The notes: generated by a model from the letters alone, not told the origin. A stretch of DNA of 64,000 nt from Candidatus Latescibacterota bacterium (GCA_965219995.1 CBDCOX010000002.1:1792001-1856000); one strand, 5' to 3'. Numbered from the stretch's first letter, positions 46,008 through 64,000 are shown. Program-made: numbers and translations.

Positions 46008-48557
46008 TCAGTCGCGATCGGATTCGCCCGGGCCAATCCGGGAAATCCGCCGCACGAACCACGGACCGATCAATACCGCCGCGGCGGCCAGCAACAACAC
46101 GACGTCGACAATCAGCAATGAGAATCGCAGCGGCGACAGCCTTGGCTCCAGTACGATCCGGCTCTCGCCAGGACCGAGTTTCAGCGCCACGAAGTGGCCG
46201 GCTGTCGTGAGCGGCCGCGCGTCCCCTCCGTTCACGGTAACCCGCTGGTAGGGATACGCCGTGTATGCCAGCCGCGCAAAACAGGCCGCACTGGCATGTA
46301 CGACCAGTTCGACCCGCTGATTCCAGACCCGATGGGCGAGTACCTTCACCCGTGGCGACGTACCCAGGTCTTCCGCAGGGTGTGCGCCGGCGAGAAGAAT
46401 CTGCCTGCACGTTCGGTTCCGCATATCGACGTCCATCGCCCGCAGCAGCTTCACGAAGTCGCCAAGTGCACGGGTCTGCATCCTGCGCGCTTCACGTTCA
46501 TCGACGTCCGAGCCGGACCGGGCACGCGCCCTGTCCAACTCCCGGACGGGATAGGACCATCCCGAAATCTTCGACGACACCACAACAGGACTGGCTTCAG
46601 GAAATTCCCTGTGGAAGATCCGGTCCTGCTCCGAATCGGAATACAGCAGGTGGCGGGTGTTCATGAGGAAGAGCCCAACGCGGATCAGGTCGAACCCCGG
46701 CATTTCGTTCAGGTCTGCATTCTCTTCCAGACGCTGCAGCGACAGGTGAAGCACATCCTGGAAACGCCGGACAAAGGCCGGCACAGACAGTGGGTACTGC
46801 GTGAATGTATCCAGAGGTGTCGCGAGGCCCGTCTGAAGGGCCAGCCAGGGAATGATGAAGTGGTAATAGATCTTATTCGTCGTATGGAACAGCCGGTAAC
46901 CGGGAAGCTGCCCGTCCCCATAGGCTGCAAGCTCTTCCCGGAACCGTTTGTAAACGGGACGATGCTGCAAGGGCAGCGGCTTCACAAGCGGCCAGGCGTT
47001 CGGGTCCCGCCGCAGGTCCTGCAAGGCGCGCGGGCCGATGTTCGACGCCGCGCCAGGGGCCCGGTACGGCTGCTGAAAGGTGGTCGGCCCCAGGTCCGCC
47101 AGGATCACCACGAGAATTGCCACGAAGACCCCGACGGGGCGTTTCCGTCCTGAAGCGCGCCCGGCGGCAAACAACCCCACGAGCACGGCGACGAAGAACA
47201 CCACAAACAGCAGGTACCGGGAGGCGTTCATCGCCTGCACCACCCCCACGGACTCGAGTACGGGCCAGCGGTACCCGAAGACCAGCAAAAGCGAACCGGC
47301 CAGGCAAAGGCCAACCGGAAGTCCGGCTGCGCGCACTCCCACGCGTTCGCTCCGGACAATCCGTACCAGCGCCCACAACGCAATCGCGACCAGGCTTATC
47401 CCGAGATACCCGCCATACCAGTGTTCCTGGGCCTGAAACAGCCGGAACCGGTAGTTGGACCAGAACAACAGATGCCGCCAGGTGGGCACAGGGAAATCGG
47501 ACATGTAGAACCCGGCATGAAGTCCAGTCAGTCCCCGTTCCAGGTACATTGGCACCGTTAAATAAGCCCCCAGCAACACGCCTCCCCCGAAAAGCAGCAG
47601 ACCGTGTCGAATCGAGAACGGCGTGTCTTCGCGACGGGTCATTCGGCACCTGGCGATCGCATACACCCCGAGAAACGCCGTTGCCCAGAAGCCGTAACCC
47701 GGATGGGTAACATGCAGACAGCCCAGTGCAAGGCCGCCGCCGACGCCCTGGGCCAGCCGGTTTGGATGACTTCGCAGTCCCTCCCAGAAGTAGAACGGCA
47801 ATGGCAGCAGGGCATAGAACAGCGAGAGCGGCAACCTGCCCATAATGAGGACCTGCTGCGTATGCCAGAAACTCAACACATACGCAAGCGCAGCCGCGAA
47901 ACCGGCCGGGCGCGACCCGGTCAGCCGCCGGACGAAGAGGTACGCGCCGAGCCCGGACAGGACGTGGGTGGCCCCGAGCACGAACTTGATCGACGAAAAC
48001 GGCGACTGGAAGGCCAGATTCACCAGCCCGACCAGGTAGTAGAACAGGAAGCCGTAAAACTGAAGGTAGGGCGTGCCGTTACAGAAGTAATGGGTCCAGA
48101 CGGGGACCTCGCCGTGCGACATTGACGTTGCCGCCAGCCATGCGTAGGTCACATGCAGATAGGTGTCGGCGCCATGGGCGAATTCCCCTTCAGCAAAATA
48201 AAAGCGAACCAGAATCAGGCTCCCCGCAACGAGGAGCAGGACCGTTCGCTTTTCACTTGCAAAGATATGGTCGAAAAAAACCGAAAGCCGCCGCTTGCGC
48301 CACTCCAGGAAAACCAGCAGCGATCCCACCGCAAGGATCAGAAACAGCATCGACACATCGATCGCGTTGAACTTCACAAACCGCGAAACGACAGCGAGAA
48401 ATCCCTGAAGACTCTGATACCTGAGGCCCGGTCGAAGAACGCCGAATTTATCCAGTGTCAAATACTGAAATATAATCAGCAGCCCCGCCAGCAACGCCAG
48501 CAGGGCCGACACGTCCACGGGCCATCCGGTGTTTTTGCGTCCCTCAGGCCGTTTCAA
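46008..48557 (-). CDS. Polytopic membrane protein, PTPS-related / YfhO-like GT-C glycosyltransferase
   Basis: GADTYLH, PVWTHYFCNGTPYLQFYG, many TMs, C-terminal YfhO-like AYPYQRVTVNG domain. Confidence 0.7.
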   Translation of the reverse strand: MKRPEGRKNTGWPVDVSALLALLAGLLIIFQYLTLDKFGVLRPGLRYQSLQGFLAVVSRFVKFNAIDVSMLFLILAVGSLLVFLEWRKRRLSVFFDHIFASEKRTVLLLVAGSLILVRFYFAEGEFAHGADTYLHVTYAWLAATSMSHGEVPVWTHYFCNGTPYLQFYGFLFYYLVGLVNLAFQSPFSSIKFVLGATHVLSGLGAYLFVRRLTGSRPAGFAAALAYVLSFWHTQQVLIMGRLPLSLFYALLPLPFYFWEGLRSHPNRLAQGVGGGLALGCLHVTHPGYGFWATAFLGVYAIARCRMTRREDTPFSIRHGLLLFGGGVLLGAYLTVPMYLERGLTGLHAGFYMSDFPVPTWRHLLFWSNYRFRLFQAQEHWYGGYLGISLVAIALWALVRIVRSERVGVRAAGLPVGLCLAGSLLLVFGYRWPVLESVGVVQAMNASRYLLFVVFFVAVLVGLFAAGRASGRKRPVGVFVAILVVILADLGPTTFQQPYRAPGAASNIGPRALQDLRRDPNAWPLVKPLPLQHRPVYKRFREELAAYGDGQLPGYRLFHTTNKIYYHFIIPWLALQTGLATPLDTFTQYPLSVPAFVRRFQDVLHLSLQRLEENADLNEMPGFDLIRVGLFLMNTRHLLYSDSEQDRIFHREFPEASPVVVSSKISGWSYPVRELDRARARSGSDVDEREARRMQTRALGDFVKLLRAMDVDMRNRTCRQILLAGAHPAEDLGTSPRVKVLAHRVWNQRVELVVHASAACFARLAYTAYPYQRVTVNGGDARPLTTAGHFVALKLGPGESRIVLEPRLSPLRFSLLIVDVVLLLAAAAVLIGPWFVRRISRIGPGESDRD

Positions 48558-48629
48558 ATCGTACTCCGCGTTTGTCCGCCGAGGTGAGTGGAGAACGTAA
48601 CCGGTGTTCGCCGCCTCACGACCTGGTCA

Positions 48630-49268
48630 TCATTCGAAAGATATCCCAACCCGGGCAGGGAAGAGTTGCGTACTTCCCCGCTCTCCAGTTGTAAACCCGA
48701 TCTCAAACCGCCCTTCGACAAAGAGATGCACCCGGTCCGTAAGCCGGATGTCGATGCCGGCGCCGGCGTTTATCGCAAACCCGGTCCCGGACTGCCCGTC
48801 GACGTGAATCTCAACGCCGCCGATTTCGGTACCCTGTATATCCGCTTCCGAATACGACAACAACCCCAGTCCGGCAACCGCATAGGGCACCGCCCGAACA
48901 TCCAGATCGTCCGAATCGATTGTCTTGGTGTATTTCATACTGGCGAATGCGCTGAAGAGATGTTTCTGCCCGCCGCTCGTGCTGATCAGCACCTCGAGTG
49001 CTTCGTTCTCCGCCTTGAATTTGCCCTCATCCAGTGAGAAACGTGCGTATCCCAGACGGCCCTGGACGGCCATGCTGGGGTGAATGAAAACCTCCGCTCC
49101 CGCGCCCACGCCGATGCCGGGATACCAGAATTCCGAGACGGAAATCGATGCGGGAGCGGCGATTCCCGCCGTTACGAAATAGATCGGCTTCCGCTGCGCC
49201 GTCGCGTCGCCCGCCAACCCGCCGGACAACAATTGTACTGCGACAAAAACAGGCAACACTCTCATCAT
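48630..49268 (-). CDS. Outer membrane beta-barrel protein (OmpA/porin-like)
   Basis: Signal peptide, VPYAVAGLG, NAGAGIDI, C-terminal GISFE; AAGGAGG RBS. Confidence 0.8.
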   Translation of the reverse strand: MMRVLPVFVAVQLLSGGLAGDATAQRKPIYFVTAGIAAPASISVSEFWYPGIGVGAGAEVFIHPSMAVQGRLGYARFSLDEGKFKAENEALEVLISTSGGQKHLFSAFASMKYTKTIDSDDLDVRAVPYAVAGLGLLSYSEADIQGTEIGGVEIHVDGQSGTGFAINAGAGIDIRLTDRVHLFVEGRFEIGFTTGERGSTQLFPARVGISFE

Positions 49269-49299
49269 GGAAGTCCTCCTTGTCTCGGTAGCCGTCCGC

Positions 49300-50640
49300 C
49301 TACCGTCCAACCGCTTCCTGCAGCCTGCGCCATCCCTGCAGAATGGATGGGACCATCTGTACGGGTTGTCCGGCTTTACAGAACACGGCCCACAGCACGT
49401 CCCACACCTGCGGATGCCACTGGCACAGATCGATCCAGTCCGCACACGGCGTGCTTTCGCCTTCCTTCCGGTCCACGCGTCCGCCGATGACCGGATCATC
49501 CAGCGACCCGTTCCACATCTGATCCAGCAGGGTATGCGCGAACCGCCTCATATCGGCGTTGTTGAATACCACGCCGCGCCGGCAGGCATCGACGGCGAAT
49601 CCGATATCGATCCGCCCGTGGCTGGTATCTTCAATGGCGCTGTGCCCGTGGGCGCCGGCCTCGAACCAGTCCCAATAATACCAGGTATAGGCCCTGCCCG
49701 TCTTCCACAGGTGCCGCTTGAAATTCTTCGCCATCCGCCGCGCACGGTCTGCAAACAGCGGTTTCCGCGATACGCTCTGAAGCGACAGGTACGCCCGGGC
49801 CAGCGAGAGATATTGATTGTGCGGCATAATCCGGTTCGGAAACCGTTCCGTCATCCAGGGAGAAAACCGGTACCCGCCGGACGCGGGAGTTGAATCCACC
49901 CAGTCCCGCTCGTGCTTGTCGGCGATCTGCTTCCCGATAAAACGCAGGTACGCTCTCGCGCTGTCTCCGAATTCCGCCTTCAGCTCCGCATCCTTCAGGG
50001 CGTGCTCGACAAAGCGGCTCACGGGATGCAGAAACATCCCCTGGTGGACAATATACTCCAGCGGCTCGCCGGCGAAAACCTGGACCCAGAACCGATCTCC
50101 AGCGCGCGCCGCGCCCCGGATGCTGATCTTGAACGGCGCAAAACCGTCCAGCGTCGATCCTGGCCGAAACCGGCCGCCGGCCAACTCCCGCCGCGTTCCG
50201 TATTCCTGCACGGCGTACCGCCGCCCGGGGAGAATCTCCACCACGCGAAGCGTGTCCCGCGCCATATCCCCGCCCCGGATCACCCACACCCGTTCCTCCT
50301 CGGGCGTGATGCGCGCCGTACCCCGGTTGTGCATCGAGCCCGTTCTCACCAGCGCCACCGAGTAGGTCGGCGTGACCCAGGTCGCAACCCCGTCCGCAAA
50401 GTGGTCCTGCCTCGTGGCAATCATCCTGTCGAAGTGGCCCACGATCCTTTCCAGCCATCCTCCATCCCGTGTTGATTCGTAGAGCTTTACGTACGCATCC
50501 AGGAATCCGCTTTCACCCCACCCGAGGACCCCGGAGTCCGGGTTATCGGACTGGCCCTTGCCCTGGTTGTGCGATCGGTCATAGGCGGCGTATCGCTCGA
50601 CCAGTTCGTCGCGATCAAATGGAGCCGCGCACCCGGTCAT
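49300..50640 (-). CDS. Hypothetical protein, probable alpha/alpha toroid (six-hairpin glycosidase-like)
   Basis: Trp-rich helical hairpins (LGWGES..YVKLYE, PHNQ, YTWYYW, EDTSHG). Confidence 0.55.
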   Translation of the reverse strand: MTGCAAPFDRDELVERYAAYDRSHNQGKGQSDNPDSGVLGWGESGFLDAYVKLYESTRDGGWLERIVGHFDRMIATRQDHFADGVATWVTPTYSVALVRTGSMHNRGTARITPEEERVWVIRGGDMARDTLRVVEILPGRRYAVQEYGTRRELAGGRFRPGSTLDGFAPFKISIRGAARAGDRFWVQVFAGEPLEYIVHQGMFLHPVSRFVEHALKDAELKAEFGDSARAYLRFIGKQIADKHERDWVDSTPASGGYRFSPWMTERFPNRIMPHNQYLSLARAYLSLQSVSRKPLFADRARRMAKNFKRHLWKTGRAYTWYYWDWFEAGAHGHSAIEDTSHGRIDIGFAVDACRRGVVFNNADMRRFAHTLLDQMWNGSLDDPVIGGRVDRKEGESTPCADWIDLCQWHPQVWDVLWAVFCKAGQPVQMVPSILQGWRRLQEAVGR

Positions 50641-50893
50641 AACAAACCTCCAGCCTTTCGGACAGAAAAAAAGCCCGCCAACCGCCTTCGGCCGCCGGGC
50701 CCGTCATTGATAAACACAAGCAAGGACAGCGGTCAGTCCGCCCACCATCCGCAGGTTCGGGAGTCCGGTTGGGAAGGCGGGCGCTGAATGCTGATCACCG
50801 AGTGCTCACATTGAATTCGCGGACGCGCTACACCCATCGTCCCATACAAATATCAGCACTTTCAAGGTCGCCTCAGCCAGCCCTGAAAGCTAT

Positions 50894-53800
50894 CTACTGA
50901 ACGTAGAATCCGGTCTGTCTGTTCGAAGTCAGACCGCTGTTCAGGTCGGTGACGTCGATTTCGAGTATATACTGCCCCGGCCTGGTCGACTGCAGATCCA
51001 GCTCCATGTATATTTCTTCCGACTCCGAGTTTCCGATCTGCTCGTAGCCCACCGCAAGTTCCTGTTTTCTGCCGGTGAATACACGCACCAACTGGGAGAT
51101 GACCCCACTGGCCGAGCGCCCCTGGACGCCCTTGGGCCGAATGGTATACTCCACCTTGTACCGGGTCTGTCCGAATGCGTCTTTCTTCAGGCGGTAAATT
51201 TCATAGTAGACAAAGACACCCTGGTCCCGCCCGAAGGTGCGGGTGGGAATTGGAATGACGCGGAGACCGCCCTTTCTGAATTTCCCCGGTTTGTCGGACT
51301 CGACAACCGAATGGGCCAATTGCAACTCGCTCAGCTGCAGGAAGTTCCTGTCGTAGTTGTCAATCACGACTTCCTGACGGTACCGGCCCTGCCGTCCGGA
51401 CAACCTGTCCCTGACCTGCACCTCCATCCGGTAGGTGCCGGGAGGTACGCCCAGATCCACCAGATCGGGCACAAAGCCGCCGCGCGCGCCGGTCAGGTCA
51501 CCGCCCCCGCTGAATTCCAGATTGCCCTGCCGGCGGTACACCGCGCCGTTGCGCGGGTTGTTCAGCGCCACGGATCGTTGCAGAAACATCTCGGTTGCGT
51601 CCCGATCGGGCAGATACTTGCCTAACTTATACGGCGCCCCGAAATAGACCTCCAGCATCGACCCGAGTCCACGATCATCCTCCCGGAAGTTGGCCAGATC
51701 GTAATAGAATTCCAGCGGCAATTTTTCTTCAGGCGGCTTGTAGTAGTCCGGCGTTACCCGGGCCGCCTGCTGGGCCACGAACCGCGGATTGAACTGGTTG
51801 AACTTGGTCAACTGCTGCATGGGGATGCGCACGTCCATCGGCGGCGGCGCGTACTCGAACTCGCCGCGCATGTGTTCATCGGTAAACGTGATTTCGATGC
51901 CCCCGTTCACATCGGTATAAACCCAGACCTCCCAGGGGACCATCGACGCGTCGTCCTGTGAAGATACGGCCTTGAATGCAAAATCGTTGGGTGACTCGCC
52001 CACCGCCAGAGCGCCGTCGTTCATCTGGACGTTTTCGAACCGGAGCAATTCCAGAGACGCATCCGAGACTTCGTTGTCTGACGTAATTCCCGATTCGAAG
52101 GTGATCCCCGTCCGCTGCGCCTGGCTTCCGGCTACCACCCGTGAGGCTTCCGTGTTGCGCCCGGCAATGCTGAGATCCTCCACCTGCCGGCCGGCGGCGA
52201 AGCCGTCGCCCAGATTCGCGCCGCCGCTGAGATTGGATTTCAGGCTGCGCACCGCGTACACGGGCCCGCCCATGAACGTCATCTGGAGGGCAGCCTGCCC
52301 GTACATCTGCCGGGCAATGCGCTCACGGACCCGCTGCACTTTCAGGCTCTGGTTGTAATTCTTCATATCCGAGGTGGACCGGTAGTCGGGTTCCCCGAAT
52401 CGAATATAGACCTCACCCCGCCGGTCCCAGGGCTGCTTGCCCGACGAATAAGCCCCCAGCGCGTACCAGACCCGCCGGTAGTGTTCCAGCAGGCGTTCGT
52501 TGATCGCCGTCGTCAGGTCCGGGTCATGAGCCGTCCAGAACCGTTTGACCAGTTCGACGCGCGCCTGGCCGTCGGCCATGTCGTACGCACTGCGCTCCTC
52601 CGAAGACATCAGAAGTACAGGATCGCGGTACAGCGCCTGCTCTTCCGCCGTCGCCGCTTGCAGGTACTCCCTGAAATAACGGTCTGCCCATTCGAGCCGT
52701 CCCAGCCCCACGCACGCCTGTGCCAGCACGGCCATCACGCCCGTTTCGTCCGGATGTTGCCGGACATAGTCAGTCAGCAGGTCCACGATCCGTTCGTAGT
52801 TCCGGGACCGGAGGTACACCGCGGCCAGCCGCTGGCGGCCCTTGGGATCTTCGGGTTTGAGCGTCATGTATCGCGCGTAAAGCAAGGCCGCCCGCTCGAA
52901 ATCCTCCTCGTGCACCTCGTACCACTCTCCCAGAAGCAGATAGGCGGGCGCATACGTAGGATCTATGTCGAGCACCTTCTCAATATCGTACCTCGCGTCG
53001 TGTTCCTTCAGCCTGCGCCTCAGCCTCGCGATATTGTAACGCGCTTCCAGGTAGTCGCGGTTGTATTGTAGAGCCTTCGTGTAGTACCGGATGGCGTCGT
53101 ACCGGGCTTTGGGCCGCCTTTCGAACACCTGACCGAGTCCGTTGTACGCTTCCGCCAACCTGTGGTCCAGTCGAACCGCACGTTCGAAAGAACGCAGCGC
53201 GGCGTCCGGATTCTTCGACTTCAAATAGGCATAACCCAGCAGGCAATGCCCGCGTGCGGACTTCGGCGCCATCAGCGTGACCACCCTCAGAACAGGCACG
53301 GCCGCCTTCGCGTCGACCTCCAGCACTCGCGCACCCACGTCCAGCAACGAATCCACCAGCGTCCGACCCGCCGCCCGGTCCATGACCTCGAAACCGTCCC
53401 CGCGGGGAACCAGTTCCAGCAGCCGCCCACGATGATAGGGACTGATCACCATCCCCTCTCCGTCAGCAGCCCCCGACCGGTAGAAATAACTGATCGGGCT
53501 CTTCTTTCGATCTTCGGGCGACCTGAACAACCGGTCGAGAATCCGCTCCTCCGAGTCGTCCAGCCCGCCGGCCCGGGCCGAGCCCTTCAACACCTGCAGG
53601 TTGGCAGGCTGTCTGCCGTCGTTGCGCCGGCGGAATTCAAGAATCATATCCCCGATCGCGGACAGGTTCTCCCTGCCGACCCATCGCGCCCCCTGGTCGC
53701 CCGCCATCCGCGACCTGCCCGCCAGCAGCTTCGCGTATGCCATGGCGGGCTTGGAATAGAGGAGGTGATCTCGAGCCAATGATTCGAACTGCTGAGCCGC

Positions 53801-54352
53801 ATCGCGATAAAAAAGCTGCGCGTGGCGGAATTCCCACTGACGGAGCGCTCCGTACGCCAGCTTTACCGTCATCATCGCCTTCTCTACGCCCGCGAGCGAA
53901 CGGTTGGGCCCGTTGCGCGGCCCCCCGTTCTGCGCGGAAACCCACTCGACGTCCAGGCGTTCGAGTTCAATCTCCCCCGGACGTCGCACAACCGTGCCGT
54001 TTACCATCACCTCCCAGACCTGGCTCTCCACCATCGGCACCGCCGCCTGCCCCATCCCGGAGAGACGATAGTCCCGTAGCGGACGGTCCTTGTAGAACAC
54101 CCGCCGGCCGTCCGCGGATCTGCCCAGTTGCCCGGGGCGGCCCGGGAAGGCGCCCAGCCTGTGTTCGATCCCGCTTGCGTCCACCGACCACACTTCCGTC
54201 AAAGCCGCCTGCCCGTTTTCGTAGGAAGCGGTCCAGACCCGCTGGCCGTTGGACTCCGCGGCGACCGGAAGCGCCGTCCCCGCCACCAATCCGCAGGCGG
54301 AGAGCAGACCAAACGCAAGGTGACCGAAGGATATTTTACCTGAACCAGGCAC
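50894..54352 (-). CDS. Large secreted TPR + GWxTD-domain protein
   Basis: GTG start after GGAGG; signal peptide; TPRs; FWTAHDPD..NERLLEHYRRV..PWDRRGEVYIRFGEPD; paralogue of 14211-16433. Confidence 0.82.
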   Translation of the reverse strand: MPGSGKISFGHLAFGLLSACGLVAGTALPVAAESNGQRVWTASYENGQAALTEVWSVDASGIEHRLGAFPGRPGQLGRSADGRRVFYKDRPLRDYRLSGMGQAAVPMVESQVWEVMVNGTVVRRPGEIELERLDVEWVSAQNGGPRNGPNRSLAGVEKAMMTVKLAYGALRQWEFRHAQLFYRDAAQQFESLARDHLLYSKPAMAYAKLLAGRSRMAGDQGARWVGRENLSAIGDMILEFRRRNDGRQPANLQVLKGSARAGGLDDSEERILDRLFRSPEDRKKSPISYFYRSGAADGEGMVISPYHRGRLLELVPRGDGFEVMDRAAGRTLVDSLLDVGARVLEVDAKAAVPVLRVVTLMAPKSARGHCLLGYAYLKSKNPDAALRSFERAVRLDHRLAEAYNGLGQVFERRPKARYDAIRYYTKALQYNRDYLEARYNIARLRRRLKEHDARYDIEKVLDIDPTYAPAYLLLGEWYEVHEEDFERAALLYARYMTLKPEDPKGRQRLAAVYLRSRNYERIVDLLTDYVRQHPDETGVMAVLAQACVGLGRLEWADRYFREYLQAATAEEQALYRDPVLLMSSEERSAYDMADGQARVELVKRFWTAHDPDLTTAINERLLEHYRRVWYALGAYSSGKQPWDRRGEVYIRFGEPDYRSTSDMKNYNQSLKVQRVRERIARQMYGQAALQMTFMGGPVYAVRSLKSNLSGGANLGDGFAAGRQVEDLSIAGRNTEASRVVAGSQAQRTGITFESGITSDNEVSDASLELLRFENVQMNDGALAVGESPNDFAFKAVSSQDDASMVPWEVWVYTDVNGGIEITFTDEHMRGEFEYAPPPMDVRIPMQQLTKFNQFNPRFVAQQAARVTPDYYKPPEEKLPLEFYYDLANFREDDRGLGSMLEVYFGAPYKLGKYLPDRDATEMFLQRSVALNNPRNGAVYRRQGNLEFSGGGDLTGARGGFVPDLVDLGVPPGTYRMEVQVRDRLSGRQGRYRQEVVIDNYDRNFLQLSELQLAHSVVESDKPGKFRKGGLRVIPIPTRTFGRDQGVFVYYEIYRLKKDAFGQTRYKVEYTIRPKGVQGRSASGVISQLVRVFTGRKQELAVGYEQIGNSESEEIYMELDLQSTRPGQYILEIDVTDLNSGLTSNRQTGFYVQ

Positions 54353-54419
54353 GTACAGCTCCTCCCCGAGAATTCGGGGCCTGACGCGACGCGAGAACCT
54401 ACCCGGTATCAACCTCGAT

Positions 54420-54552
54420 GCGAAATACGATAACCGAAAAACCGGCCACAAAAAGCACAACTGAAAAAGACAAGAAACTACGAAACACGCGAATAACACG
54501 AAAAATAAAGGGCTGGATCAATTGCCACAAAAGGCACAAAAACACAAAAGGA
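54420..54552. repeat. Degenerate A-rich 9-10-mer tandem repeats
   Basis: CCACAAAAAGCACAA, CTACGAAACACGCGAATAACACGAAAA, GCCACAAAAGGCACAAAAACACAAAA. Confidence 0.65.
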
Positions 54553-54713
54553 GACGACTTCTGAAACCGGCCAGCGGCCTTAATAAAACACTGCGTACAC
54601 GGTGGTTCCGAGCAAGAGCCGTCTCTGGAATAGTGCGAATGGATATTACTAAAGAATAACGAATCAGGAAGAAAAATCAAAGCTGATTCTGTTACGCACG
54701 CCGTGATTCGCCT

Positions 54714-56687
54714 TCATTCCGACAGCAAACGAATCCGGCGGCGGGCTTCGGCCGAAACCTGCGAATCACCTTGCCACCGTTTCAGGAACTCCCGATAGGC
54801 GGCGACCGCATCCCCCGACCTGCCCTGTCTCTCCAGCACCTGGCCCAGATTGAAAAACGCCCTCGCGTCTCCCAGCGACGCGGACTTGCGATACGCCTGC
54901 GCCGCTTCTTCGGGCCGACCCGTGTTCTCCAACGCCACGCCGAGATTGAAGTGGGTTTCCTCATCATCCGGCAGCAAAACCGCTGCCTGCCTGAACCCTT
55001 CCACGGCCATCGCCGGCTCCCCGGCCCGCATGGCAGTCACACCCAGATTCATCCAGGCCTCGGCATATTGCGGGTCCAGACCTACGGCTTGCCGGTATGC
55101 GTCGGCCGCCTGCGCAAACGCCCCCTTCACGCCGTACGCATTGCCCAGGTTGTTGTAGGTCATCGCTTCTTCGCGTATCGACAGCGCCCGTTGAAAAGCG
55201 AGAATTGCCCGGTCCATCAACCCGCGCTCGGCAAACACCTGCCCTACCGCCTGGTGCATTTTCGCGCTCTCGGGATATGCCCGTACCGCACTCGAAAACA
55301 GGCTGAATTCGTCCTTCCAGTCCCGGTTTCGAACCATTGTGCGTGCGGCGTACCCCACCACCACAAGAGTAACCGAGATGACGACGCTGAAGCCGTACCG
55401 CCTGAACAACCGGTCGACCCCGACCCCTGCCAGTGCGAACACGCCGAGGACCGGGATATAGAGAAACCGTTCCTGCACCATTGAATTCAGAAGCAACACG
55501 GTCTGCGACACCCCGGCATACGGCACCCAAAAGAGCGCGCCACAAAAAAACAGCCGCGGACATCTTGCGAGCGATCGTATCCACAGGCACAGCCCGCCCA
55601 GACCCGCCACCACACCGGCGATCACTCCGGGTTCGAGAAAGGACAACGAAACCGGAATCGCATTGTACGAGTAATCCACCGACAGCCGCCACGGAAATAC
55701 CAGAAGGGAAACATAGTGCCAGAGAATCTTCCCGGCGGTCAGCAACCGCACTTCCAGTGAGGCCCCGTAGAGGGGATTTACCAGTTCGGTCATCCCACCG
55801 GGCGAAAAGCCAAGCCCCGCGGCCGTGTTGCGCACGACCAGACAGATCGCGAATACGCCCACAAAGCCCAGCCACCACGACCATCTTGTCCGTACCACGC
55901 CCGCAACCCGGCGCAGAACCTCGGCCCATCCGGGTCTGCCGGCCGACCAGGATAAAGCGGTCTCAGGCGCACCTTCCCGAAGCTTCGTTCCGCGCTCCCC
56001 ACTCTGAAACGCATCGCCCCCTCCAATCCCCATCCCCGATGCCAGGTCGTATACGACAACGAGGCCCATCAACGCGAGGGCGCTCTCCTTGCTGATCAGA
56101 CCGCAGAAGAAGGCGACAAGCGAGAGCGCATAGGCCCCCCGTGAACGGGAGGGATGCATATACGCCGCCATACCCGCCAGCAAGAATGCGCCGGCCAGCA
56201 GGTCGGACCGTCCAAAGGTCACACCCGCCGCCACTTCCGAGTGGATCGGATGTACCGCAAATAACAGGCCCGCAACGCCCGCAGCGAACCGGCTCAGACC
56301 GGCGCGCCTGCACAACCGCCACGCCAGCAGGCTGCAACACACGTGAAGAAGCACATTGGTCAGGTGATATCGAAACGGCCGAATGCCGCCCAGCGCGTCC
56401 AACAGAAACGTCAACACGGTCAGGGGCCGGTAATGACCGGTTTGGTTTCCGGGGTAACCCGCCCAATAGTGGGTTGTAAACACGCTGCCAAAATCCAGTC
56501 GCTCCACGAGCCAGCTCCGTACGATCAGGAATTGGTCGTCGTAAACCAGCCCGTTGCCCAGCGCATTCGCATAGACCATAAACGCGGCGATTCCCACCAG
56601 AGCCGGCCACGTGTATGTACCAGTCGGACCAGGGCCTTCGGGCGAGGGAGCCCGCTTCTTGCGCCCTCGGAAGATACGTTTCGCCAT
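54714..56687 (-). CDS. TMTC-like membrane protein (putative protein O-mannosyltransferase, DUF1736 + TPR)
   Basis: YDD loop motif, HYRPL, LFAVHPIHSE, GRSDLL, SKES, PWRLSVDYS, ERFLY, RNRDW then TPRs. Confidence 0.85.
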   Translation of the reverse strand: MAKRIFRGRKKRAPSPEGPGPTGTYTWPALVGIAAFMVYANALGNGLVYDDQFLIVRSWLVERLDFGSVFTTHYWAGYPGNQTGHYRPLTVLTFLLDALGGIRPFRYHLTNVLLHVCCSLLAWRLCRRAGLSRFAAGVAGLLFAVHPIHSEVAAGVTFGRSDLLAGAFLLAGMAAYMHPSRSRGAYALSLVAFFCGLISKESALALMGLVVVYDLASGMGIGGGDAFQSGERGTKLREGAPETALSWSAGRPGWAEVLRRVAGVVRTRWSWWLGFVGVFAICLVVRNTAAGLGFSPGGMTELVNPLYGASLEVRLLTAGKILWHYVSLLVFPWRLSVDYSYNAIPVSLSFLEPGVIAGVVAGLGGLCLWIRSLARCPRLFFCGALFWVPYAGVSQTVLLLNSMVQERFLYIPVLGVFALAGVGVDRLFRRYGFSVVISVTLVVVGYAARTMVRNRDWKDEFSLFSSAVRAYPESAKMHQAVGQVFAERGLMDRAILAFQRALSIREEAMTYNNLGNAYGVKGAFAQAADAYRQAVGLDPQYAEAWMNLGVTAMRAGEPAMAVEGFRQAAVLLPDDEETHFNLGVALENTGRPEEAAQAYRKSASLGDARAFFNLGQVLERQGRSGDAVAAYREFLKRWQGDSQVSAEARRRIRLLSE

Positions 56688-56819
56688 ACCTGCGGCTACC
56701 CGAAAAGAAACGGGCGGCGTCCGGACTCACAGTCCCGGGCGCCGCCCGTCGGTTCATACGCCGACAAAGCGCCGGATTTCATCAGGTTCCAATCAATCCC
56801 GCCGCTTTGCAGATGCGAC

Positions 56820-57812
56820 TTAGAACGTACCTCCGACAGAAACGCGGATCGGCGGATCGAACATGACAACACCGTCGTTCTGCTGCAGGAGCGAAACCGC
56901 CACGTCCGCCGTGATGGTACGGCCCCCGAAGGTCTGTTTCAGGCCCGCGCCCACGGCAATGCTCTCGAGGTCGTAGTTCCACTTCCAGCCGGCCCGCAAC
57001 GCGAGCGCGTTCTGCAGCCACAACTCCGCGCCGAAATGCCAGCGCTGCTCGAAGTCTACGAAAAACGCGCTCTCCACGGATGCCGTAAGGTAGGACGGAT
57101 CGCCCTTTTCACCGTAGACTTCCGCGGCAACGCCGATATTATAGACAAGCGGCAACAGGTACGCACGGTCGCCCGACTTCCGGTCAGGCCCGAAATTCCT
57201 GAACGCCATAGCGATGCGCAGGCTTCGGAAACCCGTGTAGAAGAAGCTGCCCACGTCCACCGTAAAGCCCGTGGTCTTCACCGTGTAGAGCTTCTCCTGA
57301 ACGTAGTTCGCCTTCGCGCTGAACGAGAACTTGTCCGTGAACTTGATCGCATAGAGCAGACCGACGGAGATATTATGTACGATCACGTCCTGGCCGGTCC
57401 CGTTCGGCTGATAGATCGTGGTCTCCTTCGACGGCTTCGGGTTGTGCGAGGTTACCGCAATACCGAGCACCTCGCCCCGGGCCGATCGCGTGTTCCACAC
57501 GGCGGCAGCCGAATACAGCTGGGTGTCGAGAAGAAACCGCGTCCAGTTCGCCTGGTAGGCCACGCGCTCCACGTGCACGAGCCCGGACCCGTTCCAGAAG
57601 ATCGCATTGATATCGTCGGCTACCGCGGTAAACGCGTCGCCCATGGCCACGGCCCGGGCGCCCTGGCCGATCTTCAGGAACTGCATCCCGGAAATGTTAA
57701 CTTTTTTGACACCATACTCTCCGGTCACCCCACCCCACTTCACGGCCAATGCCGGCGAAGCGGCAAGCAGCAGGGCCAAGACCGACGTAATGATTACCAT
57801 ACTTCTTTTCAC
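56820..57812 (-). CDS. PorV/PorQ family outer membrane barrel (T9SS shuttle-like)
   Basis: QFLKIGQGARAVAMGDAFTAVADDINAIFWN signature, terminal Phe. Confidence 0.85.
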   Translation of the reverse strand: MKRSMVIITSVLALLLAASPALAVKWGGVTGEYGVKKVNISGMQFLKIGQGARAVAMGDAFTAVADDINAIFWNGSGLVHVERVAYQANWTRFLLDTQLYSAAAVWNTRSARGEVLGIAVTSHNPKPSKETTIYQPNGTGQDVIVHNISVGLLYAIKFTDKFSFSAKANYVQEKLYTVKTTGFTVDVGSFFYTGFRSLRIAMAFRNFGPDRKSGDRAYLLPLVYNIGVAAEVYGEKGDPSYLTASVESAFFVDFEQRWHFGAELWLQNALALRAGWKWNYDLESIAVGAGLKQTFGGRTITADVAVSLLQQNDGVVMFDPPIRVSVGGTF

Positions 57813-57840
57813 GTCATTTCCTCCTTGTTTTGTGCGCCCG

Positions 57841-60318
57841 CTACTTGATCAGCACGAAGCTGCCTCGTCGGGTCTCTCCGCCGGATACGACAACGAAATA
57901 ATACAGACCGGTCTGCACCTCGCCGGCGATATTGAACGAGATCTGACGAAACTCGGTCTCACCCTTGGAGAGCGGAGTCCGGTCCGTTGTTTCCACGCGG
58001 TCGCCGGAGGCCGAGTAAATGTGAATGATGGCGTCGGAAGTCAGGCCCACGACGCGAAGGTTGCGGGAGTTGGGATACTGGTGAACGCCGTCCACGTAAT
58101 ATGGATTCGGTACGATGAGCACCTCTTCCGGGAGGCTGGACAACAGGGCCTGGAAGGGTTTGCGGTTGTCGCCGTCGTACGTCCTTGCCGTCGACGGCCC
58201 CCAGCCGCTTTCATACCCCCTCCGGATATTGGCCTGCACGCGGTCGCTGGGGATATCGTCGATGGTCATCCCGCTGTTCCACGTGTAGGACTCCACGCCG
58301 CTCGCGTACGGTCGTGCGGAATAGAAGTAGGAAAAGCCGGCGGTGGTCTCAAGGTCTTCGTATTCATACACGCCGTCGGCATTGATGCCCCATTCACCGC
58401 GGGGCAGACCCGCCGGACTGACCGAAGACCCGCTGGACCCGTTCTCGATGATTCCATACAGCTCCCAGGGTCCCCAGGAGAACCACTCCGACTTGTACAG
58501 GCGGACGCCCAATATATCCTGTTCACCTGTATACGGATTGACGGCGGACTCGGACTCCCTGCCCCACCGGATCAACTGCTTGGCCTTGGTGGAAGAGGTG
58601 AGATTGTCAGCCGAAATATACGCTTCCGTGGGCGAGACCGGCACCTGGTAGTTGTTGTCGTAGACCCAGTGGGCCAGCTTCAGATTCTCCAGGGCTGCCT
58701 CTTCACCCTTCGTCTTTATCTTCGCAATCTTGTTCTCCGGGGTGTCACTCGACCGGTCCCACTTGATCAGCCCGATGTCCTGCTCGTTGGCGGGAATCGG
58801 TTCCAGCAGCGACGGGTGACCTGCGCCCCAGGAAAACACGAGCTTGACCGATTCGCCCGCGCCCACGTTGTACGGTCCGTAAACCGTCATGTCGTGGAAT
58901 ACCTTGCGCGTGGAAATGTCGCCCTCGTCCGGATTGGCCTGGTAACCGCCGGTCGTTATGACGCTGGCGAGTTGCGCGGCGCTGTGCGTGGTGTACGTGG
59001 GGTCGTCGAAATCACCCGTGGAACGGGCCAGCCACCACTGGAACGAACGCGGCTGTTTGTCTTCGCCGGGCTGTACGTATTTGCCCCGGTCCGCCTCGTT
59101 GAAGGAAAACTTCGGGTCGTCCGGGTTGTCCGCATAGGCGATGGGCGCCATGAAATAGGTGCTTGGCGCTCTCGGCTGGCCTTCGGTCTGCAGGATATTG
59201 TAGTTGGAAGGCACGATCGCCTTGAAGAACGGATCGCCGGTATCGTCGTGCGAGGAAAACGGATTGTCGGAGTCCCTGCGGATGACCGCGCGCATGTCCT
59301 CGCCCGCGAACGCGCCGTTCGCGGAGAAGGCATTCGGATATCCGTCGGCCTCGGTATACCACATCGTGTCGTCCATGCCGCGGGCATTGGAAGCGTAGAA
59401 GTTCCAACCGAACTCCTCGAGAATGCCCATCGCCGTCATCGCGGCCACGTTCTTGAACGCGATGTAGAGGTTGTTGATTGGACCCGGCGCTTCACCGACG
59501 CCGTCACCGTCGAAGTCGCCGGTGTTCGTGAAGGTGAGGTCCACGATGTAGAAGTCATCGAAATCCGGATTGGACCAGCTGTACACGCGCCGCTGGGCAA
59601 GAATCCCGTTCTGCTTGTCGATCCACTGGGCGATGATGGTCTCTTCCGGAATGGTCACGTCGACCAGGTTGTGCGCCCCCAGGTTGAAGTTGGCGATGTG
59701 CGCCGGCGGGGTGGATACCGGGTCCCAGTTAGCGCCGTAGATGCTGCCCGGGTCGTCGGCGGTGACACCCGGCCAGTAATTGGACAGCGAGCCGCCCGCG
59801 CCCTGTTCGCCCGGTGAGATCGCGCTGTTCGGCAACTCGGCCAACTGATTCAATGGATTGGGCTGTCCCCAGTTCTCTTCCGGATTTCCCACCGGATCGT
59901 AGGGGAACGCCTGGTTGTGTTCCACGATCTGCAGGTTTTCGCGGGGACCGGTTACCGTTACGGTACCCTTGTCGGCGTTCAGGATCCAGATGCCTTCGCC
60001 GCCCGATACCTTGTAGTCGTTGTACATCTGGGACTTCTGGTTGGACGTGAACTGCGACAGCACCGCGCCGAACGAACCCGGCCCGTTGCCGTTCCAGGGA
60101 TAGGCGTTGCGCCTGTAGCCGCGCCCCCACTCCTGGTTGCCGCCCATACCCCCGATGTTGTTGTAGCTGTTGGAGATCAACGACCTCAGGTTATACCTGC
60201 TGGATATGTTGTCGGGAGTGGCCTGCGCATCGACCGGGACCGGCTGAAAGACAATCACAGCCAGTGCAAGGCAGCAGACGGCAACCAACCCCTTTGTAAT
60301 GAAATTCAGACGTTTCAT
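57841..60318 (-). CDS. Secreted protein with T9SS type A-like C-terminal sorting domain
   Basis: Signal peptide; C-terminus VLIVPNPY...IHIYSASGDRV...TGLYYFVV...GSFVLIK. Confidence 0.75.
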   Translation of the reverse strand: MKRLNFITKGLVAVCCLALAVIVFQPVPVDAQATPDNISSRYNLRSLISNSYNNIGGMGGNQEWGRGYRRNAYPWNGNGPGSFGAVLSQFTSNQKSQMYNDYKVSGGEGIWILNADKGTVTVTGPRENLQIVEHNQAFPYDPVGNPEENWGQPNPLNQLAELPNSAISPGEQGAGGSLSNYWPGVTADDPGSIYGANWDPVSTPPAHIANFNLGAHNLVDVTIPEETIIAQWIDKQNGILAQRRVYSWSNPDFDDFYIVDLTFTNTGDFDGDGVGEAPGPINNLYIAFKNVAAMTAMGILEEFGWNFYASNARGMDDTMWYTEADGYPNAFSANGAFAGEDMRAVIRRDSDNPFSSHDDTGDPFFKAIVPSNYNILQTEGQPRAPSTYFMAPIAYADNPDDPKFSFNEADRGKYVQPGEDKQPRSFQWWLARSTGDFDDPTYTTHSAAQLASVITTGGYQANPDEGDISTRKVFHDMTVYGPYNVGAGESVKLVFSWGAGHPSLLEPIPANEQDIGLIKWDRSSDTPENKIAKIKTKGEEAALENLKLAHWVYDNNYQVPVSPTEAYISADNLTSSTKAKQLIRWGRESESAVNPYTGEQDILGVRLYKSEWFSWGPWELYGIIENGSSGSSVSPAGLPRGEWGINADGVYEYEDLETTAGFSYFYSARPYASGVESYTWNSGMTIDDIPSDRVQANIRRGYESGWGPSTARTYDGDNRKPFQALLSSLPEEVLIVPNPYYVDGVHQYPNSRNLRVVGLTSDAIIHIYSASGDRVETTDRTPLSKGETEFRQISFNIAGEVQTGLYYFVVVSGGETRRGSFVLIK

Positions 60319-60395
60319 ATCCTTCTCCGCCTCCATTCGAAAGCAATTCGGAGCAGGCGCGCCGGCAGCGTTGTCGCTGCCGGCGCACCAATTTC

Positions 60396-63300
60396 TCACC
60401 AGTTAACGCGCAGCCCGAACTGGGCGAGACGCGGCGAATGCGCGTACGAACGATCCCGGCTGTCGCCGTAATTCAGATAGTTCTTGTCGTCCGGCGTCGG
60501 TCCGTCCAGTCCGATATACGACCAGAGGTTCCTGTTGCTCGGGCTGGTGCGGTCCTTCTGGTTGAAAACGTTCCGGACGTCCGCGAACAGCGTGGGCTGA
60601 ACCCGGCCGGTCACATTGAAGGTCTTCTCAATGGCGAGGTCGGTACGCGAATCCAACGCGAGATCGCGATAGTACCGGTTGCCGCCTTCAGGCGGGGCGT
60701 AGTTGAAGATTCCGCCCGTCTGGATCCGGGAGGTGACGTTCAGCCGGAGATTCTTGAGAACGGTGCCGACAAACGAATGGCCGAACTCGAAATCGTCCGG
60801 GAACGACGCCAGGAGCGAGAAACTCCCGAAGTTCCGGCGGTCGCCGCTTTTGGGTCGGAAGAACAGCGTGGTATAGCTGCCCGAGTTGATCTGCACCGAA
60901 CAGTTCGGGCCGCAGTTCCCCAAAGCGGGATTGTCAACCGGCCGGAGGCCGTCCCACACGCCGGTACCCAACTGGCCGCCCTTGGCCCGCGCACCGTTTG
61001 TGAAATTCTGACCCTGCTGCGCGTATTTGACCAGGTCGTCTCCGGTCAGCCGGCGAGGGGCCTCGCTGCCGTCCGGAAGCGCATCCCAGTAAATCCAGAA
61101 ATTGGGAACGGTAATGCCGCGGTCCGTAAACGCGTTGGTTGTGGCCAGGTGCACGACGGTGGCCGAGTCCATGTAGACGTTGCGGATCACATTGCCGAGC
61201 TTGCCCGTGGTGATCTGCGACCACTGGTAGTTGTAGGCAACGTTGAACGAGAAGTTGTGCGAGAAGGACTTGCGGATGGACATCTCGACGCCCCGGGTGT
61301 CGCCGTACGCGCCGTTGTCCAGCGTCCGCGAATAGGGAATCCAGAAGTCCCTGGGGCCGACCCACGTCTCATTCGGATACGACGTGAAATGGTCCACCTC
61401 GCTCTTGTAATACGCGGTTAACGTGGCGGTGTAGTCGCTCACGAAGTTCCAGTCCGCGCCCACCTCGAAGGCCGTGGTTTTGGCCGGTTGCAGCAGGTGC
61501 AGACCGTTCTGTCCGGAGTACGTCGTGCGGAAATTGTTCAACCGCTCGGTTGCGTCGATCCGGCCGTTCTCGTTGACGTCGCGGTCGCCCGCGTCGCCGG
61601 AGGTCCAGTAGTCTTCCCCGAAATAGTACCAGAGGTCCGCCCACTGGAGGAATACGCCCGTGGAGAACCGCATCTGCGACCGCTCCGTGATGGGGTGCGA
61701 GACGCCGATCCGGGGGCTGAACTTCACGTGCCAGGGCGCGTCGGTGACCCACAGGGAGCCTTCCTGATACGCCCAATCGCGCGCACGCGTATAGTAGCGG
61801 AACATGGAACTGCCCCGGTACGCGCCGAAAGTCAGCTGGCGGGAGTTGGGATTGAACGTGTCGAGGCGGATGCCCAGGTTCACGATCATCCCCTGGAACT
61901 CCATTTTGTCCTGAATATAGGCGTTGAGGAAGAAGGGCTTGACTTTCTCGCCAATCTGGCCTTCGTCCATGATCACCCGCAGGTTCCGGGCGGCCGGGGT
62001 CGTATCGTAGCGCAGAATCATGGTGATGGCGCTGGTCTGATACTCGACGCCTGCCTTGACGAAGTTCCCCTTGGTGATCTGCGAGGACAGGTCGACCTTG
62101 GCGCCGATGCGCTGCCGGTCATACTGGCCGTACCGGGCGGCCTGGCGGCCGATGGCGAACCAGCCCGCCTGGTCGCGGAAGATTTCTCCGGTGACCTCAT
62201 GAGTGCCGCTGAGGGTGTCCATCTTTGAGCGGGAATGCGAGACACGCACTTCGTAGAACGTCCTCGGGGACAGCGTGTGCGTGAACACCGCGTACTGCAA
62301 TTCTTCGCTGAGGTCGTGCAGTCCCGCGGCGGACCACTTCTCCGGCAGGAACAGGTTTTGGCCGGAACCGCGCACCATCGCGCCGCCGCCGGAGCCGTGA
62401 CGCCCGCCGAAGAGGTCCGGATTGCCGTTCGAATACCAGTCCCAACCCAGGTACATCCCACCGACTTTCAGCTTGAGATTGGCCGTCGGCTTGATGGTAA
62501 GACTTCCCGATACGTTGATCGCGCCCGGGTCGTCCTGGAAGCTCCCCCGGTCATTATAAAACCCGTGCCGCTCCGCGCGCGGCGAAGAGGCGGCATAATG
62601 GTCTTTCTTGACCGTAGCCACGAACGACGCCCTGTCTCCGATGGGGCCCGACAGGTTGCCCTCGACGCCGAAACCGACCCATTCCGTGTAGTTCGTCCGG
62701 ACGTGGACCAGCTCGCCGGCGATTTCCTCGAAAACCGGGTTGTTGATCTTGCCGGAGAGATCCGGATACTTCTCATTCGCCCAGATGGGATTGTCCCACT
62801 GCACCTTGTCCTGGTGCTGCGGCGAATCGTACACGTTCTCGCCCCAGTGCTTCTTGCCGGCGGGCTCGTAACGGAACTCGCCCCATCCGTTCACCTCGCC
62901 GCCGCCTTCCTTGGTGATGATCTGGACCACGCCGCCCTGGGCATTGCCGTATTCGGCGGGGGTGACGCCCGTGAGCACGGACAGTTCCTGGATGGCGCCG
63001 CGGTTGACGCTGCGATAGCGCCCGCCGCGACCGCGTCCGTCGTTGTGGTTCATCCGCACGCCGTCGACCACGTATGCGACGTCGCTGGCGTACCAGCCGG
63101 CGTCGACGTACGCGCCGCGAATCCGGTTGGACCCGTCAACCGCCACGCCCGGCTGCAACTGCAGCAGTTCGGACGTCCGGCGGGCCGACGCCAGGTTGCG
63201 CTCGGTCTCTTCGAGAGAAACCGTGTACTTGCTGGTGGTCTTGTCCGGCTCGACCAGGGGTCGTCCGGCCGTTACCACCAACTCGCCCAGTTCGAGTGCG

Positions 63301-63629
63301 GTCTCTTTGAGGTTGAAGTTGATGGTCGTGGTGTGGTCGGAACTGACCTCCACGCCCGTCTGGGACACCGTCTCGTACCCGATCAGGGACGCCGAGAGGG
63401 TGTAGACGCCCGGCGAAATATTGATGATGACGTAGTACCCGTCGGCATCGGCCGTGGAACCCAGGTTCAGTTCCTTGATCACGACGTTGGCGCCCGGCAT
63501 GACTTCGCCTGCCTGGTCGCGCACGACGCCGTTGATTTTGCCGGTGACGCCCGCCTGCAGGTCGCCCGTAACGAAGCAAACGGCCGCGACCGCGACTGCG
63601 ACTCCGAAAAACAGAAGCTTACGCTTCAT
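60396..63629 (-). CDS. TonB-dependent receptor with N-terminal carboxypeptidase-regulatory-like domain
   Basis: AGVTGKINGVV, GANV, plug YVVDG..IQELSVLTG..AEYGNAQGGVVQIITKEG, SPRIGVSHPIT, terminal RVNW. Confidence 0.92.
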   Translation of the reverse strand: MKRKLLFFGVAVAVAAVCFVTGDLQAGVTGKINGVVRDQAGEVMPGANVVIKELNLGSTADADGYYVIINISPGVYTLSASLIGYETVSQTGVEVSSDHTTTINFNLKETALELGELVVTAGRPLVEPDKTTSKYTVSLEETERNLASARRTSELLQLQPGVAVDGSNRIRGAYVDAGWYASDVAYVVDGVRMNHNDGRGRGGRYRSVNRGAIQELSVLTGVTPAEYGNAQGGVVQIITKEGGGEVNGWGEFRYEPAGKKHWGENVYDSPQHQDKVQWDNPIWANEKYPDLSGKINNPVFEEIAGELVHVRTNYTEWVGFGVEGNLSGPIGDRASFVATVKKDHYAASSPRAERHGFYNDRGSFQDDPGAINVSGSLTIKPTANLKLKVGGMYLGWDWYSNGNPDLFGGRHGSGGGAMVRGSGQNLFLPEKWSAAGLHDLSEELQYAVFTHTLSPRTFYEVRVSHSRSKMDTLSGTHEVTGEIFRDQAGWFAIGRQAARYGQYDRQRIGAKVDLSSQITKGNFVKAGVEYQTSAITMILRYDTTPAARNLRVIMDEGQIGEKVKPFFLNAYIQDKMEFQGMIVNLGIRLDTFNPNSRQLTFGAYRGSSMFRYYTRARDWAYQEGSLWVTDAPWHVKFSPRIGVSHPITERSQMRFSTGVFLQWADLWYYFGEDYWTSGDAGDRDVNENGRIDATERLNNFRTTYSGQNGLHLLQPAKTTAFEVGADWNFVSDYTATLTAYYKSEVDHFTSYPNETWVGPRDFWIPYSRTLDNGAYGDTRGVEMSIRKSFSHNFSFNVAYNYQWSQITTGKLGNVIRNVYMDSATVVHLATTNAFTDRGITVPNFWIYWDALPDGSEAPRRLTGDDLVKYAQQGQNFTNGARAKGGQLGTGVWDGLRPVDNPALGNCGPNCSVQINSGSYTTLFFRPKSGDRRNFGSFSLLASFPDDFEFGHSFVGTVLKNLRLNVTSRIQTGGIFNYAPPEGGNRYYRDLALDSRTDLAIEKTFNVTGRVQPTLFADVRNVFNQKDRTSPSNRNLWSYIGLDGPTPDDKNYLNYGDSRDRSYAHSPRLAQFGLRVNW

Positions 63630-63672
63630 TGTGAACCCTCCTTCAATGAGTTGTTACCCCGGCTGCGGCGGA

Positions 63673-64000
63673 TTACCGCCAGAAGTAAAACTTCATCTGC
63701 GCGCCGATATCGACCATGTGAATCGGCCGTACTTTCTCCAGACCATAGAAGAGCATATTACGCAGTTCGCCCACCACGAAATTATAGCGGGCGCGCAGGT
63801 CTATGGCCAGGTTCTGGGTGACAAAACCCTCGACGCCCACACCTGCATTGGCGCCAATGGTGTAGCGCTGATCGATCTGGTCTTCCATGACGAAGTCCAG
63901 GTCGATCGGGTCGTTCGTCTGGCGGGAATAAACCAGATTGCTGTTGATCGCGTAATAACGATAGAGGCCGCCGCCGACCAGGATATAATACCGATAATCC
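63673..64000 (-). CDS. Outer membrane beta-barrel protein, 5'-truncated by the window edge
   Basis: Frame open to the window end (DYRYYILVGGGLY...GANAGVGVE...MKFYFWR). Confidence 0.7.
   Translation of the reverse strand, partial: DYRYYILVGGGLYRYYAINSNLVYSRQTNDPIDLDFVMEDQIDQRYTIGANAGVGVEGFVTQNLAIDLRARYNFVVGELRNMLFYGLEKVRPIHMVDIGAQMKFYFWR

Follow-up and report, generated by a model that had tools for sequence, protein, structure and literature searches.

Positions 56820-64000 of a 64,000-nucleotide (nt) stretch of DNA from a Candidatus Latescibacterota bacterium (the window, at its full length) hold, on the minus strand, a conserved outer-membrane module of an uncultured lineage of the Fibrobacterota-Chlorobiota-Bacteroidota (FCB) superphylum. 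Its four genes encode a small outer-membrane protein (OMP), a TonB-dependent-transporter-like protein, an 825-amino-acid (aa) protein with a type IX secretion system (T9SS)-type C-terminal domain (CTD) at its end, and a barrel of the PorV/PorQ family. In the reading favored here, the ~800-aa beta-rich protein would be exported by Sec, carried across the outer membrane by the type IX system by way of its long PorZ/PorU-type CTD, and kept on the cell surface, its uncleaved CTD resting on the PorV/PorQ-family barrel whose gene follows 28 nt downstream, in the manner of PorZ on PorQ. The barrel and CTD protein would share a transcript with a TonB-dependent transporter of Oar/SusC architecture, of which the CTD protein would most likely be the surface-exposed ligand-capture partner, doing the job of SusD with neither the SusD fold nor a lipid anchor. 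Retention of the CTD protein on its own PorV/PorQ-type barrel is probable; the whole model, in which a T9SS-exported, barrel-docked protein is the transporter's SusD-like capture partner, is offered tentatively, and T9SS export, CTD retention, transporter contact and import as the purpose are what we infer. The four genes were located as follows.

63673-63999, minus strand: small outer-membrane beta-barrel protein, partial; the C-terminal 108 aa lie inside the window and the gene runs off its edge
60396-63629, minus strand: TonB-dependent-transporter-like protein, 1077 aa, of Oar/SusC-type architecture (signal peptide, N-terminal extension, Plug, long C-terminal region)
57844-60318 (57841 including the stop codon), minus strand: 825-aa Sec-exported protein, MKRL start taken, belonging to the FCB-wide family P0001
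56820-57812, minus strand: PorV/PorQ-family (FadL-like) outer-membrane barrel, 330 aa (NF033709)

From the small OMP through the transporter and the 825-aa protein to the 330-aa barrel, the intergenic gaps are 43, 77 and 28 nt, and the GC content at third codon positions (0.80-0.84) matches that of the other real genes of the window. The tightly linked run of outer-membrane barrel, 1077-aa transporter, 825-aa protein and PorV-family barrel claimed by the initial annotation was thereby confirmed. The absence of a SusD lipoprotein, also claimed there, was borne out by a Pfam scan of 44 open reading frames (ORFs) of the window (7 + 37), in which the SusD family was not found; the gene after the transporter instead encodes the 825-aa beta-rich protein. 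Core T9SS components (SprA/Sov, PorU and GldK/L/M/N) had no match among the 44 window ORFs or 14 locus ORFs, whole genomes not being searched. Promoter-like and terminator-like sites in 50000-64000 occurred at chance frequency (5 vs 3.8 expected, and 12 vs 11.7, respectively).

The gene run was compared with four Latescibacterota loci (L001-L004) obtained from a genome scan. The order small OMP-transporter-825-aa protein-barrel was kept in all four, at identities to the window of 60-63% for the small OMP, 55-59% for the transporter, 44-50% for the middle protein (the counterpart of the 825-aa protein) and 69% for the barrel. The gap between transporter and middle protein measured 75-126 nt across the window and the four loci. 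Chance adjacency of the genes was rejected on the basis of this synteny. Two further metagenome-assembled genome (MAG) records give transporter and middle protein consecutive NCBI accession numbers, one record does so for transporter and small OMP, and the locus tags A3F84_25275 and A3F84_25280 (middle protein and barrel) are adjacent in a Handelsmanbacteria MAG. The gene run singled out by the initial annotation is thus a conserved one, in the four loci as in further MAGs.

The following features were assigned within the 825-aa protein.

60220-60318, minus strand: predicted signal peptide, residues 1-33, ending ..VDAQA, read from the sequence with no predictor
58294-58596, minus strand: Fn3-like domain, residues ~575-675 (66-member profile vs 3mpc, E 6.3e-6)
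57844-58122, minus strand: CTD, residues 733-825, ~93 aa, T9SS-type, closest to the PorZ and PorU CTDs

Assignment of the CTD was made at the level of the family. A profile of 66 family members matched the PorZ CTD in PDB 5m11 (residues 665-758, E 1.3e-4), and among the 66 members matches were obtained to the PorZ model in 28, to TIGR04183 in 23 (E<=0.01) and to the PorU sortase model in 14, with weak matches to CHU_C (type B) in 8. When 15 members were scanned singly, PorZ matches (9) and PorU matches (5) were all confined to the CTD ends of the models, the TIGR04183 cut-off was passed by 5, and 4 gave no match at all. Against the T9SS PorZ model (NF052228, 260 bits over the full length, beta-propeller body included) the window protein had no match, and family members scored 18-38 bits at model positions 654-757 of 757 only. 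Uncleaved CTDs are longer than cleaved ones (96 residues in PorZ and 108 in PorU, compared with 67-88) in the portion of PMC11285876 drawn on here, so the length of ~93 aa fits the uncleaved class; the uncleaved CTDs of PorZ and PorU dock on PorQ and PorV, respectively, as set out in parts of PMC11285876 and PMC10202324. A search of the window and the four loci with a hidden Markov model (HMM) of the CTD returned no copy besides the five orthologues. A canonical type A CTD is carried by a 257-aa protein at L002:4063-4836 (Por_Secre_tail 33.4 bits, cut-off 27; FlgD_ig 41.9), encoded directly upstream of the small OMP in that locus only, and the presence of such cargo in the lineage makes T9SS export plausible.

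The 330-aa barrel passed the NCBIfam PorV_fam model NF033709 (134.4 bits vs 90; residues 41-294, aligned to model positions 2-298 of 326) and scored below the PorV equivalog NF033710 (43.5 vs 250), the PorQ equivalog NF033711 (58.6 vs 220) and Pfam PorV (15.1 vs 27). As PorV_fam was passed and neither equivalog was, the barrel stands as the family's third branch, in keeping with the term "paralogue". Compared with Flavobacterium PorV in the PDB (6h3i_F) it gave E 0.0071 only. A word-limited search returned 274 relatives, annotated, where named, as "PorV/PorQ family protein". Single genomes contain two or more barrel paralogues at ~50% identity, two being located on each of the 10,277,987-nt and 7,108,786-nt contigs. 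The initial annotation's description of the barrel as a paralogue is therefore upheld: it is a PorV_fam member other than PorV or PorQ proper, and genomes hold several such paralogues.

For structure prediction, residues 556-825 of the 825-aa protein (21-row alignment) and the barrel (37-row alignment) were modeled as a complex. In three runs ipSAE was 0.89, 0.90 and 0.89, compared with 0.05 for the best control; among reference cases, 116 of 157 solved complexes attain the ipSAE mark, as do 2 of 215 mismatched pairs. The runs agreed in at least 82% of contacts, and partner pLDDT was at least 72. In the predicted interface, the CTD (residues 732-825), together with residues 659-662, faces residues 40-48 of the barrel and several loops. 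The model thus docks the CTD on the neighboring barrel, as the initial annotation had inferred, and is to be read as likeness to a known binding mode, not as proof for the window copy.

The same pairing appears to recur elsewhere. Six of 28 middle-protein clusters were tied to barrel clusters through contigs of equal size, one of them a contig of 3864 nt. A distant subfamily (P0037 type) has 31% identity with the window protein; of its 15 listed contig sizes, 7 also occur in one barrel paralogue cluster (P0297 type), itself 46% identical to the window barrel, and among them is a contig of 2477 nt with a 334-aa fragment and a 313-aa barrel. Two middle-protein paralogues, 38% identical to each other, were found on a 6,338,376-nt contig, and a 5,561,361-nt contig carries an orthologous transporter and small OMP plus the paralogous pair. 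Taken together, CTD homology, the docking model and a second subfamily beside its own barrel paralogue lend good support to a cognate barrel-CTD pair.

Such a pair has precedents. In PorQ-PorZ and PorV-PorU of the T9SS attachment complex of Porphyromonas gingivalis, a secreted protein is anchored to a FadL-like barrel of the PorV/PorQ family through a CTD that stays uncleaved and exceeds the usual length (portions of PMC10202324 and PMC11285876), an arrangement that is predicted here. The CTD of the middle protein matches exactly those two CTDs. The present locus differs in the unrelated body of the protein, in the adjacency of the two genes (porQ and porZ, like porV and porU, are presumably non-adjacent in P. 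gingivalis), in the several paralogous pairs per genome, in the linked TonB-type transporter and in a lineage outside Bacteroidota. PorP/SprF with type B cargo (SprF-SprB) likewise provides a dedicated barrel for one particular CTD cargo, and PorP/SprF are called PorV-like barrels deployed for specific substrates in an excerpt of PMC10202324; here, the barrel is of the PorV/PorQ family and the CTD is type A/PorZ-like. Since PorQ-PorZ, PorV-PorU and PorP/SprF with type B cargo are already known as cognate pairs (same excerpt), the idea of a "private PorV" is less novel than the initial annotation supposed.

The 825-aa protein was matched to no Pfam or NCBIfam family at default thresholds, and its body to no recognized family of binding or catalytic proteins. 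A search with a profile of 21 close relatives returned 2785 representatives (50% identity) at E<=1e-3, with 884 at <=1e-10 and 79 at <=1e-30; with the 66-member alignment, a homologue search gave 30 matches, all from the close clade, and no distant members. Feature-based look-alikes fell in clusters without a name, which were most frequent in Gemmatimonadota, Ignavibacteriota, Fidelibacterota and Bacteroidota. A hydrophobic N-terminus with an AQA-type site is kept across the family; a lipoprotein reading was rejected because the cysteines of the signal peptide are not conserved. The AlphaFold2 (AF2) model (pLDDT 66.6, pTM 0.76) is beta-rich, with a body at residues ~100-730, and its Foldseek matches in the PDB (TM 0.15-0.17, to GH94/GH116 beta-sandwich domains) were not taken as indicating function. 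The fn3 model was matched in 3 of 66 members. In the very gappy alignment of the 66 members, no catalytic-type residue of the body was invariant, which fits binding rather than catalysis. Conservation in the close family is among its highest at residues ~31-105 (60004-60228), where many alignment columns vary little or not at all, and these residues are modeled at pLDDT 33-41; this conserved but poorly modeled stretch may fold only against a partner.

Within the transporter, the following features were assigned.

63273-63536, minus strand: N-terminal extension, CarbopepD_reg-like, residues 32-119 (PF13715, 69.3 bits, cut-off 32.2; PF13620, 67.9 bits, residues 32-108)
63267-63293, minus strand: TonB-box-like motif ELGELVVTA, residues 113-121, between the N-terminal extension and the Plug
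62928-63239, minus strand: Plug domain, residues 131-234 (PF07715, 36.3 bits, cut-off 23.9)

In ELGELVVTA, by consensus a putative TonB box, E113, L114, E116, V119 and A121 are invariant in all four orthologues. A profile of the four orthologues (A4) was compared with the PDB and matched the plugs of PqqU (9c4o, E 1.4e-5) and YncD (6v81, E 1.7e-5) and the N-domain of a SusC homologue (9hfj, E 6e-5), with no match past residue 244. Over residues ~245-1077 (60396-62900, ~840 aa), no Pfam barrel model was matched in any of the four orthologues even at E<=10. The C-terminal W is invariant among them, and an AF2 model built on the shallow four-sequence alignment was unusable (pLDDT 28). As the 22-stranded barrel of a TonB-dependent transporter, the C-terminal region would be unusually divergent or unusually large; assignment to this class of transporter is thus secure over the N-terminal third, whereas the barrel is a presumption. 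Close relatives are named "TonB-dependent receptor" or "carboxypeptidase-like regulatory domain-containing protein" at NCBI. The L003 transporter is interrupted at L003:8807-8809 by an in-frame stop (YTY*GVDG), at a site occupied by tyrosine in L004 (YTYYGVDG) and lying 38 codons short of the conserved C-terminus; either the assembly is wrong here or the gene carries a nonsense mutation. The small OMP has a weak OMP_myx_plus match; its orthologues measure 237-238 aa, and two were scored against OMP_b-brl (cut-off 28.7), at 29.4 bits for L001:761-1477 and 19.4 bits for L003:4930-5643.

The systems nearest to the proposed function are SusCD and RagAB, transporter-lid pairs of Bacteroidota in which SusD caps the SusC-type transporter. 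Like them, the locus sets a CarbopepD_reg-extended transporter beside a gene for a large, surface-exposed partner whose family is multi-copy per genome. It differs in that the transporter fails the SusC/RagA model (TIGR04056, 79.6 bits vs a cut-off of 368, matched by N-terminal residues 31-243 only), in that the partner is beta-rich and not of the SusD fold, and in that anchoring would depend on a barrel-bound CTD rather than on a lipid. The step from the barrel-CTD pair to a SusCD-like importer is suggested by adjacency to the transporter in one clade and by the multi-copy families.

Genes downstream of the barrel were also inspected, and two neighbors were assigned.

54714-56687, minus strand: multi-pass membrane protein, 657 aa, with a TMTC/PMT-like segment and C-terminal tetratricopeptide repeats (TPRs) (TMTC_DUF1736 27.0 bits; many TPR families)
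50894-54499, minus strand: TPR and GWxTD-domain protein, 1201 aa as listed (TIGR04514, 48.7 bits, cut-off 28)

The counterpart of the first (hereafter GT-C/TPR) follows the barrel in L001 (start only), L003 and L004 and is absent from L002, and the GWxTD protein lies downstream at 45-49% identity in all three loci long enough to show it; L003:14402-15820 encodes a methyltransferase-GT2 protein. Whether the GT-C/TPR and GWxTD neighbors belong to the module is uncertain, and the term GWxTD was not found in a full-text literature search. Further downstream, at 43767-50640, the window carries envelope-type genes encoding a 728-aa TPR protein, an 849-aa membrane protein (PTPS_related), a 289-aa protein of the OMP_b-brl kind and one of 446 aa that matched no family. 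The Pfam scan of the 37 further window ORFs returned peptidases, sulfatases, selA, selB and other metabolic genes. Among other features of the window are a 600-aa protein with strong WD40 repeats (35253-37055; PF00400, 220 bits) and a compact selenocysteine-incorporation locus at 10578-14121, consisting of tRNA-Sec (anticodon TCA, 10578-10675), selB (10808-12706) and selA (12694-14121). Phylum labels were inconsistent, near-identical proteins being filed as Gemmatimonadota/Gemmatimonadetes in some NCBI records and as Latescibacterota in others, the latter name also appearing in the four loci's titles.

Several observations weigh against the proposed importer. The window copy of the CTD scored under every CTD cut-off (TIGR04183 17.3 vs 23, E 0.0034, last 120 aa; FlgD_ig 18.8 vs 27) and had no PF18962 match, so that the type A CTD-like ending described in the initial annotation is upheld as a T9SS-type CTD for the family profile, through the PorZ CTD of 5m11, and fails for the window copy by the HMM criterion of that annotation. 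PorV-cargo complexes are already present in the PDB (6h3i and 8gl* entries), and the high co-fold score may for that reason reflect likeness only. Co-location of the paralogues was deduced from equal contig sizes and not from coordinates, and linkage to the transporter was seen within one clade only, the distant subfamily showing the barrel-CTD pair alone. The body of the 825-aa protein matched no known binding protein in Pfam, NCBIfam or Foldseek comparisons, the conserved block contains no catabolic enzyme or inner-membrane transporter, and the neighbors (GT-C/TPR, GWxTD and the L003 methyltransferase-GT2 protein) suggest envelope assembly as much as nutrient uptake.

In a first alternative, barrel and CTD protein would form a self-contained surface-display pair (an adhesin, coat protein or other envelope component) that takes no part in import, with the transporter merely lying in a co-regulated envelope locus. 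The second subfamily, which repeats the pair without evidence of a transporter, is in line with this, as are the envelope-type neighbors (the GT-C/TPR and GWxTD/TPR proteins, the outer-membrane barrels and the methyltransferase-GT2 protein of L003) and the Fn3-containing, beta-rich body with no conserved catalytic residues. A FadL-like barrel that holds a surface protein in a non-transport role is also known, in BamG-BamH of the Bacteroidota beta-barrel assembly machinery (BAM), where a 14-stranded FadL homologue binds a surface protein via extracellular loops, although that pair, as presented in the relevant part of PMC12578637, belongs to BAM and has no CTD, whereas the barrel here passes PorV_fam. 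Mere co-regulation is harder to reconcile with a transporter and middle protein that stay adjacent (75-126 nt) in the window and all four loci despite protein identities of 44-50%, while farther neighbors are less constant, the GT-C/TPR gene being missing in L002. Surface display without import was judged rather unlikely.

In a second alternative, the TonB-dependent transporter would export the 825-aa protein, in the way of Oar, on which PopC secretion in Myxococcus depends, and the PorV-like barrel would then hold the cargo. The supposed cargo gene lies directly after the transporter gene, and the barrel region is unusually long, with no barrel model match. A T9SS-type CTD on the cargo, together with canonical type A CTD proteins in the lineage, points instead to T9SS; PopC is not known to have such a CTD. 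In architecture, the transporter resembles Oar of Myxococcus xanthus, which combines CarboxypepD_reg and Plug with a TonB box, and its CarboxypepD_reg extension before the Plug places it in the Oar subclass as delimited in the available text of PMC6434023; the Oar system as described in that text has neither a PorV-like barrel nor a CTD. Importers such as SusC show this extension just as typically (9hfj match), so the CarbopepD_reg-Plug architecture gives no indication of the direction of transport. Only one exporting TonB-dependent transporter is known, and export through the transporter was considered improbable. Least probable is that the pair is the lineage's housekeeping T9SS attachment complex, a PorQ/PorZ equivalent serving all cargo: the CTD does match the PorZ model more often than generic type A (28 vs 23 of 66), the PorQ score of the barrel is a little above its PorV score (58.6 vs 43.5 bits) and PorZ keeps its CTD to bind PorQ (part of PMC10202324), but the similarity to PorZ is limited to the CTD, the body is not recognized as PorZ and scores far below the 260-bit cut-off, and the presence in single genomes of two paralogues of the middle protein, and of at least two of the barrel, is unlike what is expected of a single-copy machine part.

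A transporter, CTD protein and PorV-like barrel as a set were not described in the papers returned by the full-text literature search. In the part of the 2015 Latescibacteria paper drawn on (PMC4454575), Plug-domain proteins are mentioned only as presumed B12 and iron receptors, and the terms "type IX" and "Por secretion" do not occur. The barrel-CTD pair and its family are real, large and uncharacterized. As read from sequence, the pair extends a known principle, that of PorQ-PorZ, PorV-PorU and PorP/SprF with type B cargo, and its link to the transporter is one of synteny only.

TonB-dependent transporters are major nutrient gates of environmental FCB bacteria, and SusD-type lids are, to our knowledge, largely a feature of Bacteroidota. 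A wider form of the model would be that FCB bacteria outside Bacteroidota equip TonB transporters with T9SS-exported partners held by an uncleaved CTD on private PorV/PorQ-type barrels, with several paralogous modules per genome in the SusCD role and with the conserved N-terminal ~75 residues engaging the transporter; we regard this generalization as doubtful. If it were true, two outer-membrane systems so far studied apart would become linked, a large unnamed family (2785 representatives) would gain a function, and the several PorV/PorQ paralogues per genome would have a reason. On a minimal reading, the PorQ-PorZ principle would be extended beyond the secretion machine and beyond Bacteroidota, and cognate barrels with uncleaved-CTD proteins would constitute a general surface-display device.

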